A stretch of 64,000 nucleotides of DNA from Nitrososphaeria archaeon (GTDB lineage: Archaea; Thermoproteota; Nitrososphaeria; Geothermarchaeales; JDFR-13). Each line of letters starts with the position of its first letter. Positions within the stretch are counted from its first letter, which is position 1. Where the stretch lies: assembly GCA_027078545.1 (NCBI GenBank), contig JALWXN010000004.1, forward strand, positions 224,001 through 288,000. Reading direction: 5' to 3'. Of the stretch, positions 3,692 to 24,356 are shown in pieces. The notes below the pieces were generated by a model. It made no database searches and had not been told where the DNA came from. It saw only the letters and a list, made by a program, of their open reading frames with translations. The position numbers were made by a program, and so were the translations under genes.

Positions 3692-3824
3692 GGGGCCGTG
3701 GCCCAGCCAGGAAGGGCGGCCGACAATATCGTTGGCTGAGGCTCCAGATCCCGGTATTAGGACCCTCTGGGGATGACTGGTGGATACCGGTCGGTCGTGG
3801 GTTCAAATCCCACCGGCCCCACCA
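3692..3824 (+). tRNA. tRNA-Trp(CCA) with two introns: 18 nt at 30/31 (3723-3740) and 38 nt at 37/38 or 38/39 (approx. 3749-3786)
   Basis: The spliced product has anticodon arm GCCGG-CT CCA GA-CCGGT. Intron 1 BHB is CGGC/GCTG with bulges CGA and AGG. Intron 2 helix is TCCA/TGGA. CCA end encoded. Confidence 0.92.
3751..3780 (+). ncRNA. Candidate intron-encoded K-turn guide for C39 of pre-tRNA-Trp
   Basis: CCGGTATT is antisense to the 3' splice junction GATACCGG. It is followed by the K-turn AGGA-CCC-TCT-GGG-GAT-GA-CT. The N+5 position pairs with C39. Confidence 0.55.
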
Positions 3825-23214: not shown

Positions 23215-23289
23215 TGGAGCCCCGGGCGGGATTTGAACCCGCGTCCTCCGGCTTACCAAGCCGGCGCTCTACCACTAAGCTACCGGGGC
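23215..23289 (-). tRNA. tRNA-Thr(GGT), intronless
   Basis: Reverse complement reads GCCCCGG...CCGGC-TT GGT AA-GCCGG...CCGGGGCTCCA. Confidence 0.97.
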
Positions 23290-23339
23290 ATGCGCTAGAA
23301 TATTTTATCCCCAGAATCTTTTTATTGGTTTTGCTATAT

Positions 23340-23807
23340 TCATAGGTTTCTAACCGTTCTCCACAGCTTGTCCCCCTTGTAATGGAGGTTCTTCACTATC
23401 TTTCCCTTCTCACCGATGTCGGATTGGTTGAGTAGGGCCTGGCCGATGGCTATGGGTGTCCCCTGGAATTTTATGAGGACTAGCCTATCCTTCACCAGGT
23501 TCTCGTGGCTAGTGATGCCGGGGGCCATGAGGTCAGCCCCTCTAAGGACTGCCTCGGCGGCGCCTCTATCAACCTCTACCCAGCCCTCTATATCTACGCA
23601 GCCTATGGTCTCTAGGAAGGGGTATAGCAGCCTATCCCTCTGTATAACGACTAGTCTACACTCGTCTTCAAATATGTAGATCTTGTTGTCGTCTATGCTT
23701 GTTGTGAAACCCCTCCTAAACTCTGTCTTGGGCTTGGCCCCGGCCATTGTGAGGAATGTGAGGATCTTCTCCATCTTCTTATGGCTGAGTGGCTGGATCG
23801 TCGGCAT
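23340..23807 (-). CDS. PUA-domain RNA-binding protein (Tma20/MCT-1-like)
   Basis: VEVDRGAAEAVLRGADLMAPGI and KGKIVKNLHYKGDKLW. Confidence 0.9.
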   Translation of the reverse strand: MPTIQPLSHKKMEKILTFLTMAGAKPKTEFRRGFTTSIDDNKIYIFEDECRLVVIQRDRLLYPFLETIGCVDIEGWVEVDRGAAEAVLRGADLMAPGITSHENLVKDRLVLIKFQGTPIAIGQALLNQSDIGEKGKIVKNLHYKGDKLWRTVRNL

Positions 23808-23840
23808 CGCTACATGTCCACCAGTTCCTTGTAGATATTA

Positions 23841-23929
23841 TGGTGGGGCCGGTGGGATTTGAACCCACGACACCCCGGTTTCTGTTGTTTTCTTCAGCCG
23901 GGTGCTCTCCCAGGCTGAGCTACGGCCCC
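23841..23929 (-). tRNA. tRNA-Phe(GAA) with a 12-nt intron at 37/38 (23880-23891)
   Basis: CCCGG-CT GAA G[AAAACAACAGAA]A-CCGGG; CCA encoded. Confidence 0.93.
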
Positions 23930-24048
23930 TCTAGTCAAAATTAGTCTTACACACCCCTTAAAATAGTTATGTCGCGGTGTACCGACTATGACTGTAGCTA
24001 CTCTCCAGTAATGTTAAATAGAGGGGGTATCGAATCTCTAATTTAGTT

Positions 24049-24168
24049 GCCGCCGTAGCTCAAAGGTGGAGCGCCCGGCTCATAACTAGGATGTTATGAG
24101 CTATGACCCTATGGGGGATGATGTGGGAGACCGGGAGGTCGCGGGTTCGAATCCCGCCGGCGGCACCA
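24049..24168 (+). tRNA. Elongator tRNA-Met(CAT) with a 45-nt intron at 37/38 (24085-24129)
   Basis: GCCGCCG acceptor stem (elongator type). CCCGG-CT CAT A[intron]A-CCGGG. BHB helix CTCA/TGGG with bulges TAA and AGA. Confidence 0.93.
24093..24124 (+). ncRNA. Candidate intron-encoded C/D-type methylation guide for C34 of tRNA-Met
   Basis: GTTATGAGC is antisense to GCTCATAAC. It is followed by T, D'-like ATGA, a CCC-TATG-GGG stem and C'-like ATGATGT. The N+5 position pairs with C34. Confidence 0.6.
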
Positions 24169-24282
24169 GAGAATTATTCCTCCTATATTTCCTGTATGCC
24201 TCTGAGGGCTCAGGGATAAGTAGATCCCTTAGTGGTCAGGCATAGTAGTGGCTTCTCAATTATGTTGTGGCTGGTAGGATTC

Positions 24283-24356
24283 TGGTGGACCCGGGGGGAT
24301 TTGAACCCCCGCCACCCGCGTGCGAGGCGGGCGTTCTACCATTAAACTACGGGCCC
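24283..24356 (-). tRNA. tRNA-Ala(CGC), intronless
   Basis: GGGCCCG/CGGGTCC acceptor stem with G3-U70; CCCGC-CT CGC AC-GCGGG. Confidence 0.96.

Follow-up and report, generated by a model that had tools for sequence, protein, structure and literature searches.

Box C/D guide RNAs are defined by two box pairs, and the archaeal tRNA-Trp intron is named in reviews and genome surveys as the sole case of a guide carried by an intron (PMC3218864; PMC4090602). For elongator tRNA-Met, the 2'-O-methylated cytidine at position 34 (Cm34) is made in haloarchaea by a separate small RNA (sRNA), sR-tMet, according to the account of Joardar 2011 given in PMC4033218, and a separate guide for the same modification is predicted in Pyrococcus (PMC7994747). 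Here, we present an analysis of the 45-nt intron of a tRNA-Met gene from a Nitrososphaeria archaeon, located in a 64,000-nt stretch of contig JALWXN010000004.1 (positions 224,001 to 288,000; hereafter the window). This intron is probably a functional box C/D guide of half the usual size, with a single kink-turn and aimed at C34 of its own tRNA.

The described system most similar to this locus is the 66-nt intron in the elongator tRNA-Met of Nanoarchaeum equitans, which accumulates as a stable, abundant C/D-like RNA and has been termed a potential C/D sRNA (Randau 2012, PMC3491384). The two introns share the host tRNA, the 37/38 insertion site and the order of a 9-nt antisense element, one base, a D box, a CCC/GGG hairpin and GAUGA, whereas the N. 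equitans intron differs in having a canonical CUGA box and an extra 6-bp GC hairpin; its RNA is stable, while the intron described here is known from DNA alone. An earlier reading of the window, made from its sequence only, had proposed a Met guide built into the intron and reduced to one kink-turn. That proposal stands, but the design is not unprecedented, as the N. equitans intron has the same architecture. The N. equitans intron as a stable C/D-like RNA is thus already published, and what is new is the target assignment, the covariation, the reading as a half-size guide (halfmer) and the spread to tRNA-Lys and tRNA-Trp introns. In the main text of Randau 2012 the word "anticodon" is absent and no passage using "target" concerns the N. 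equitans Met intron, the study of tRNA modifications in N. equitans by Rose 2020 leaves the anticodon out, and a search for modification data on N. equitans tRNA-Met yielded none.

Three further systems provide points of comparison. The two-guide introns of pre-tRNA-Trp (Pyrococcus sR50 and Haloferax volcanii), as far as they are described in PMC7994747, PMC4090602 and PMC4033218, also carry a guide at the 37/38 site that acts on its own tRNA, with a duplex that spans the exon-intron junction, targets position 34 and is mutually exclusive with the splicing motif. They differ in having both C/D and C'/D' pairs, two guides (C34 and U39) and 65-105 nt, against one kink-turn, one guide and 45 nt in the Met intron. 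The free-standing sR-tMet, and an sRNA of a sister genus described below, share the C34 target in the elongator tRNA-Met precursor and the rule that methylation falls on the nucleotide opposite the fifth guide base upstream of the box (N+5); however, they are separate genes with two box pairs, whereas here the guide lies in the intron of its target and has one box pair. Half-size guides have so far been shown to work only in vitro: engineered halfmer and monopartite guides (PMC7229835; PMC9670817) resemble the intron in having the guide 5' of a single kink-turn or K-loop hairpin, dependence on L7Ae, the N+5 rule and a limit of about 10 bp, but they are synthetic and act in trans on oligonucleotides, while the intron is natural, conserved and covalently joined to its target. 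Together with L7Ae, Nop5 and fibrillarin, such guides methylated efficiently and strictly at the intended site. In the in vitro work of Wang 2022 (PMC9670817), monopartite hairpins with the guide followed by a kink-turn or K-loop were strictly specific and efficient once L7Ae was present.

The host genome (G000) is archaeal, 1.24 Mb in size with 52% G+C, and was assembled from hydrothermal-vent metagenomes. The tRNA gene lies at 24049-24165 on the + strand, as do all features of the locus given here, and is followed by an encoded CCA at 24166-24168; the Rfam tRNA model scores it at 61.2 bits. With introns allowed, ARAGORN calls it as tRNA-Met(CAT) with a 45-nt intron after position 37. The 5' exon of the elongator-type tRNA-Met(CAU) (positions 1-37) occupies 24049-24084, with C34 at 24081, the intron in the canonical 37/38 site 24085-24129, and the 3' exon (positions 38-73) together with the CCA 24130-24168, all placed by Rfam, ARAGORN and the sequence itself.

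Within the intron, the guide GTTATGAGC at 24093-24101 (N+10 to N+2) is the exact reverse complement of the target strand GCTCATAAC at 24078-24086, which comprises G31-A37 and intron bases 1-2 and was delimited from sequence, fold and covariation. Target and guide are connected by a 6-nt loop, TAGGAT (24087-24092), which is not conserved, and the guide is followed by a single spacer base, T24102 (N+1), with a possible G30-U wobble. Next comes a D/D'-like box, AUGA (24103-24106), which forms the non-bulged strand of the kink-turn and reads CUGA in the congeners G001 and G004 and in N. equitans. G24098, the fifth base upstream of this box (N+5), pairs with C34. The canonical stem of the kink-turn (stem I, 24107-24116) consists of CCC (24107-24109), a TATG loop (24110-24113) and GGG (24114-24116), and the bulged strand (24117-24124) consists of a GAU bulge (24117-24119), the sheared GA (24120-24121) and UGU (24122-24124), so that a C/C'-like box, AUGAUGU (24118-24124), faces the AUGA. 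The element thus has both GA dinucleotides, the U.U pair and the 3-nt bulge, along with a stem I that covaries. The alternative GGGAUGA register, a K-loop as drawn for N. equitans, was set aside in favour of a true kink-turn because stem I covaries and abuts both GA dinucleotides: it starts right after the GA of the D-like box, and on the opposite strand stem I is followed by GAU and then GA, an order that holds for CCC/GGG, GC/GC, CAA/TTG, GGC/GCC and GAGC/GCTC stems.

The splicing motif is also intact. The bulge-helix-bulge (BHB) geometry, read from the sequence, has a 4-bp central helix between CTCA (24079-24082) and TGGG (24124-24127), and its two flanking bulges of 3 nt (TA^A and AG^A, with ^ at the splice site) are in place; the 3' strand with its splice-site bulge extends over 24124-24130 and pairs with C32-A35. 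The central helix and the guide duplex therefore compete for the same bases. The sequence-only reading had claimed the perfect 9-nt antisense element, the pairing of G24098 with C34, the kink-turn geometry and the competition with CTCA/TGGG, and all of its coordinates and intron parts were confirmed base for base. No second box pair (C'/D') and no second GA/GA motif were found in the 45-nt intron or its homologues, nor was a second guide, the sequence past the C-like box forming the BHB helix only, and conservation of ACTAGGAT, the stretch 5' of the guide, does not extend even to G002. Rfam holds no family for the intron: at the gathering threshold only the tRNA is reported, and with E values up to 10 no credible match appears, the best C/D one being sR36 at 8.4 bits.

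The element recurs in related and in distant archaea. BLAST of relatives recovered the Met gene in three congeners (G001, G002 and G004), whose introns keep the order of guide, one base, NNGA, stem-loop and GAUGA, and also returned the tRNA-Lys(CUU) of this genome, the 55-nt intron of which can be aligned with the Met intron. A Met-specific pattern run on 185,579 species genomes gave 18 matches, including seven in archaea, all of them in tRNA-Met introns (N. equitans, a second Nanoarchaeota metagenome-assembled genome (MAG), a Micrarchaeota MAG, an Aenigmatarchaeota MAG and the three congeners); the 11 bacterial matches are near the expected number and were taken as chance. A sample of 301 genomes from the phylum of N. 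equitans contained 18 with a match, 16 of these in tRNA-Met genes, with 0 control hits, and contributed 15 further tRNA-Met genes with the module. Among 401 sampled genomes of the archaeon's own phylum a true match was found in this genome only, the other matches (L089, L091 and L092) lying outside tRNA genes and being attributed to chance.

Covariation was assessed in two sets of 23 introns each, one of Met and Lys introns and one of tRNA-Met introns only. For the Met set, 89% of cells were paired, compared to 30-46% with partners slid, and 59 cells were changed on both sides, compared to 22.8 +/- 4.1 in shuffles, with 0 of 500 shuffles reaching 59. The 31:N+2 pair is G-C in 12 and A-U in 11 of these introns and never unpaired, stem I shows four, three and four pair types at its three pairs, and a set of eight Met sequences gave the same picture. 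For the Met and Lys set, 205 of the 207 pairs form in register, compared to 35-47% when shifted, and the N+5:34 pair is Watson-Crick in 23 of 23 homologues. The N+1 base is T or G in 22 of 23 but pairs with G30 in just 11. Pairing is found in 22 of 23 introns at N+10, in 13 at N+11 and in eight at N+12, a drop-off that matches the pairing limit of about 10 bp for C/D particles (PMC7229835); the guide-target duplex is thereby held within about 9-10 bp, as these particles require. GAUGA occurs in 21 of the 23, a count that is not independent evidence for conservation because most homologues were collected by patterns requiring GATGA. The conservation and covariation that the sequence-only reading had proposed to look for in relatives were thus found for guide, spacing and kink-turn alike.

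The pairing crosses the exon-intron junction of the precursor: intron bases 1-2 covary with N+9 and N+10, the pair between intron base 1 and N+9 being A-U, C-G, U-A or G-C across the Met and Lys sets, and the 5' end of the guide tracks the intron bases in relatives (GC in N. equitans, GT in the Aenigmatarchaeota MAG, ATT and ATC in congeners). This argues that the guide is selected for pairing with the pre-tRNA. The duplex had been proposed to form with both the pre-tRNA and the spliced tRNA, which is so in this genome, but with the precursor as the selected partner an action on the spliced tRNA becomes less likely. Contigs of vent metagenomes carry the strain variants T24092C (shared with G002), A24111C and a 1-nt deletion at 24113, and the variants in G002 and these contigs fall in loops and not in the guide or boxes. 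In the N. equitans phylum, many Met homologues fold into tight hairpins whose loops have 3-4 nt. In L140, L142, L147 and others, the anticodon loop, a 3-4-nt spacer and the guide together make a near-perfect palindrome, for example CTCATA-TGCA-TATGAG, and such DPANN palindromes could fold as a cis hairpin or as a 16-bp trans dimer.

Among the 27 introns called by ARAGORN in the genome, only that of tRNA-Met has a Watson-Crick complement of at least 6 nt to its own anticodon region, and 2 of 2000 shuffles attained its 9 nt. The guide helix is part of the pre-tRNA's minimum-free-energy fold (z = -3.3), while the intron folded alone has no unusual stability (z = 0.54); the signal resides in the intron-exon pairing and not in the intron alone. 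By nearest-neighbour energies, the guide conformer and the BHB conformer reach -51.0 and -40.7 kcal/mol at 37 C and -19.4 and -14.0 kcal/mol at 70 C, respectively, so that the guide conformer is favoured by about 10 kcal/mol at the lower and about 5 kcal/mol at the higher temperature. Judged from the recurrence of its design with compensatory changes in relatives and distant phyla, the element is not a product of chance.

The module is not confined to tRNA-Met. A pattern requiring the kink-turn but not the guide identified four tRNA introns in this genome, those of Met, Lys(CUU), Lys(UUU) and Trp, and one free-standing C/D sRNA; the same four tRNA introns were found in G002, and single Trp or Lys(UUU) introns in G003, G004, G005 and G016. 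In every Met and Lys case the stretch before NNGA, set off by one spacer base, complements nucleotides 31-37 together with two or three bases at the start of the intron, and N+5 therefore pairs with nucleotide 34. The guides track the anticodon, containing TATGAG for CAU, TA(A/G)GAG for CUU and T(A/G)AAAG for UUU. Around the D-like box, the Met and Lys(CUU) introns agree at 14 of 15 bases, a likeness that points to a recent swap of the cassette between them. The Trp module pairs instead with the last intron bases and positions 38-43, which places N+5 on C39, an established target position of intron-borne guides, and its guide covaries with the anticodon stem (CCGG in this genome, GGG in G005); the Trp intron of G016 has a second guide, for C34, giving the full two-guide form.

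The individual loci in this genome are as follows. The tRNA-Lys(CUU) gene (G000:C4:115540-115671, - strand) has in its 55-nt intron the guide GGTAGGAGC, T, ACGA, CCC...GGG and GAUGA, with N+5 on C34. About 4 kb past the end of the window (G000:C4:292081-292233, + strand), a gene called Leu(gag) by ARAGORN reads as tRNA-Lys(UUU) with two introns, of which the one at 37/38 contains the guide GGTGAAAGC, then G, ACGA, a hairpin with a CCC/GGG stem and GAUGA, and N+5 falls on U34; at least six genera of the family have homologues. Within the window, at 3692-3824 (+ strand), a gene called Ile(gat) by ARAGORN reads as tRNA-Trp(CCA), also with two introns, and the 37/38 intron carries the guide CCGGTATT (about 3751-3758), AGGA and the kink-turn hairpin GACCCTCTGGGGATGA (3761-3776), with N+5 on C39. 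Several intron-bearing tRNAs of this genome were mis-assigned by ARAGORN in its default mode and in some intron-mode calls. The free-standing C/D-like sRNA (G000:C4:~707600-707700, + strand) reads GATGATA, 13 nt, CTGA, CCCCC-AA-GGGGG, ATGA, 16 nt and TGA, and its D'-hairpin-C' core matches the intron modules.

All three core proteins of box C/D particles are encoded, L7Ae (PF01248) at C4:324700-324978, Nop5 (PF01798) at C4:52038-52712 and fibrillarin (PF01269) at C4:52856-53479, the latter two genes being adjacent. The sequence-only reading had also called for a search for a separate sR-tMet. Across all NTGA sites of the genome with G at N+5 and at least 8 contiguous pairs to the Met-C34 region, none had a C box at the right distance. 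A site at C4:857303 has ATGATGA upstream of 9 nt complementary to the initiator precursor, but it covers a start codon with its ribosome-binding site, has no D box after it and was rejected as chance, and the site TTATGAGC-T-CTGA at C4:1079520 has no C box. In the sister genus represented by G007, the 29-nt Met intron has no guide and a canonical free-standing two-guide C/D sRNA is present instead (L154 ~1470-1525; G007:C6:~1297950-1298012), consisting of a terminal GGGG/CCCC stem, a C box, an 11-nt guide, CUGA, a 5-nt loop, GAUGA, a 12-nt guide and UUGA. Its D guide is aimed at C34, pairing with A31-A37 and four intron bases of its own pre-tRNA-Met with N+5 on C34, and this guide thus also crosses the exon-intron junction; its D' guide is TACAAAGCAAT. 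No Met-C34 sRNA of this type was found in G000-G004. Since G007 has the free-standing sRNA and no intronic guide, and G000-G004 are without such an sRNA, the comparison speaks for C/D-guided Cm34 on the Met precursor as a family trait, for which the guide is supplied either in trans or by the intron.

Together, the conserved guide, the spacing, the kink-turn, the constant Watson-Crick pairing of N+5 to nucleotide 34 and the three encoded core proteins support the proposed single-guide box C/D reading. We therefore regard the element as real and consider it likely that nature has here a box C/D guide with a single kink-turn (a halfmer, or monopartite guide), built into the intron and functioning in the formation of Cm34. 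The sequence shows that the nascent pre-tRNA can adopt a fold in which intron bases 9-17 pair with G31-A37 and the first two bases of the intron, and that this duplex abuts, after one spacer base, the kink-turn of AUGA, the CCC/GGG stem, the GAU bulge and GA. In the proposed mechanism, L7Ae would bind the kink-turn, and Nop5-fibrillarin would dock and methylate, at its 2'-OH, the nucleotide opposite the fifth guide base, converting C34 to Cm34. The guide duplex would meanwhile hide the 5' splice site and occupy the anticodon-loop bases needed by the BHB central helix, such that refolding to the BHB form would be required before the endonuclease cuts and methylation would precede splicing. Guide and target may belong to the same molecule, folded as a hairpin, or to two different precursors. 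The tight 3-4-nt loops of many Nanoarchaeota homologues favour the intramolecular form; action in trans on another precursor molecule is fully possible and is counted within this explanation.

Several observations weigh against a guide function. The patterns used to collect homologues fixed the complement to positions 32-37 and the spacing, so the unbiased evidence is limited to the 31:N+2 pair, the intron-base pairs and the kink-turn stems. The intron has only one kink-turn, as neither it nor its homologues have a C box 5' of the guide or a D box 3' of the C-like box, and that kink-turn is imperfect: because the box is AUGA rather than CUGA in this genome, the usual C-G pair of the non-canonical stem (4b-4n) becomes a G.A mismatch. 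The C-G pair is canonical (CUGA/UGU) in the congeners G001 and G004, and in the Met and Lys set 17 of 23 introns have a Watson-Crick 4b-4n pair, but only 10 of 23 do so in the Met set. Single-site complexes were found to be active but non-specific (Hardin and Batey 2006, PMC1635284); Yang 2020 (PMC7229835) ascribed this to an over-long duplex and reported that halfmers guide site-specific methylation and sense the length of the duplex. None of the 400 other sampled genomes of the phylum has the module, and the elongator-Met-like introns seen in other genera of the family are short or without it, which means that the module is dispensable or replaceable. The genome further encodes one FtsJ-type and one SpoU-type methylase, so that formation of a 2'-O-methylated nucleotide 34 by protein alone is possible. 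A search of sequencing runs for RNA from the locus gave vent DNA metagenomes and RNA runs sharing a few conserved tRNA words, and no RNA run contained the locus. Finally, the H. volcanii pre-tRNA-Trp guide is reported to work in trans (PMC4090602; PMC7994747), so that a cis hairpin is only a possible mechanism.

Of the other explanations, the most probable is that the helix and kink-turn are structural or regulatory only and direct no methylation, serving as a folding chaperone at high temperature, as a delay on splicing or as a shield of C34, for example against the tRNA-Ile2 agmatidine synthetase. It would agree with a guide duplex that masks the 5' splice site and exceeds the BHB form in stability, and with a single kink-turn whose D-like box is degenerate in this genome. 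We nevertheless consider it unlikely, because it fails to explain why the helix ends exactly one base from NNGA with N+5 on nucleotide 34, why it is capped at about 10 bp, why the Trp module is aimed at position 39 and not at the anticodon, and why, in the sister genus, that nucleotide is the target of a canonical free-standing C/D sRNA. The gradation of Trp introns from the two-guide form of G016 to one-guide forms, the likeness of the Met and Lys(CUU) introns around the D-like box, and the lack of the module in sister-genus Met introns could also mean that the intron is a decaying, non-working remnant of a two-guide C/D intron or a transposed Lys module, in which the complementarity is inherited and unselected. 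This seems quite improbable given the compensatory double changes that preserve the guide helix and stem I across genera and phyla, the correct retargeting of guides to the CAU, CUU and UUU anticodons, and the confinement of variation in G002 and the vent contigs to loops. That the excised, probably circular, intron is the active guide, working in trans on spliced tRNA-Met or another RNA, has very little probability: intron bases 1-2 (AC) are the same as positions 38-39 here, so that a 9-bp duplex exists with the mature tRNA, excised tRNA introns do circularise (PMC3326292), the Haloferax Trp intron particle acts in trans (PMC4090602) and the N. equitans intron accumulates as a stable RNA, but the 5' end of the guide in relatives follows the intron bases and not positions 38-39, pointing to selection on the precursor.

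If the intron is a halfmer guide, a wider reading becomes possible, which we put forward tentatively and hold to fall somewhat short of an even chance. The modules may be the first natural, conserved halfmer guides, acting as cis hairpins in which the 3-8-nt loop between target and guide leaves no room for a second kink-turn, and forming a two-state switch that is methylated, refolded and then spliced. They would represent a portable cassette that has been retargeted among Met, Lys(CUU) and Lys(UUU), where nucleotide 34 is targeted, and Trp, where nucleotide 39 is targeted, and would be interchangeable with free-standing bipartite sRNAs. The intron and its relatives are, in any case, conserved natural halfmer candidates with an unambiguous target. 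A guide role gives a function to the long introns of tRNA-Met and tRNA-Lys and would explain their retention, it supplies the N. equitans intron RNA, already published, with a target, and it implies that members of a single archaeal family serve one modification site with either an intronic halfmer or a free-standing sRNA of two guides.

The host gene is taken to be an elongator tRNA-Met, and not tRNA-Ile2 or an initiator, by similarity and not by an isotype model. The mature tRNA is identical at 69 of 73 positions to the intron-bearing elongator tRNA-Met of N. equitans, with all four differences in the D loop, compared to 57 for the intronless CAU tRNA, and the other two of the three CAT tRNAs called by ARAGORN in this genome read as initiator and Ile2. 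The one at C4:509179 is the initiator, with A1-U72 and G29-G31, and the one at C4:201952 is probably tRNA-Ile2, being intronless and having its acceptor stem and A73 in common with tRNA-Ile(GAU). Upstream of the Met gene, a TATA-box-like sequence, TTAAATAG, at 24014-24021 (+ strand), 28-35 nt from the 5' end of the tRNA, is a candidate promoter, read from the sequence and fitting in position to archaeal promoters.

Other introns with kink-turn-like sequences were also noted. The tRNA-Tyr and tRNA-Cys genes of this genome (G000:C4:187123-187279 and C4:492715-492823) have introns of 78 and 33 nt, respectively, with kink-turn-like GGATGA or GAGACC...GGGATGACC, and in neither was an N+5 guide to nucleotide 34 found. 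An Ile2-like tRNA(CAU) in another genome (L127; G006:C59:4795-4866, - strand) has a 41-nt intron with CTGA, TTATTGG and TGATG, a C/D-like element, and no convincing target could be placed for the stretch upstream of its CTGA. The Met gene itself stands in a dense tRNA cluster on both strands (window 23215-24356), comprising Thr(GGU) (-), Phe(GAA) (-), Met (+) and Ala(CGC) (-), in which the Phe(GAA) gene (23841-23929, - strand) also contains an intron, of 12 nt.

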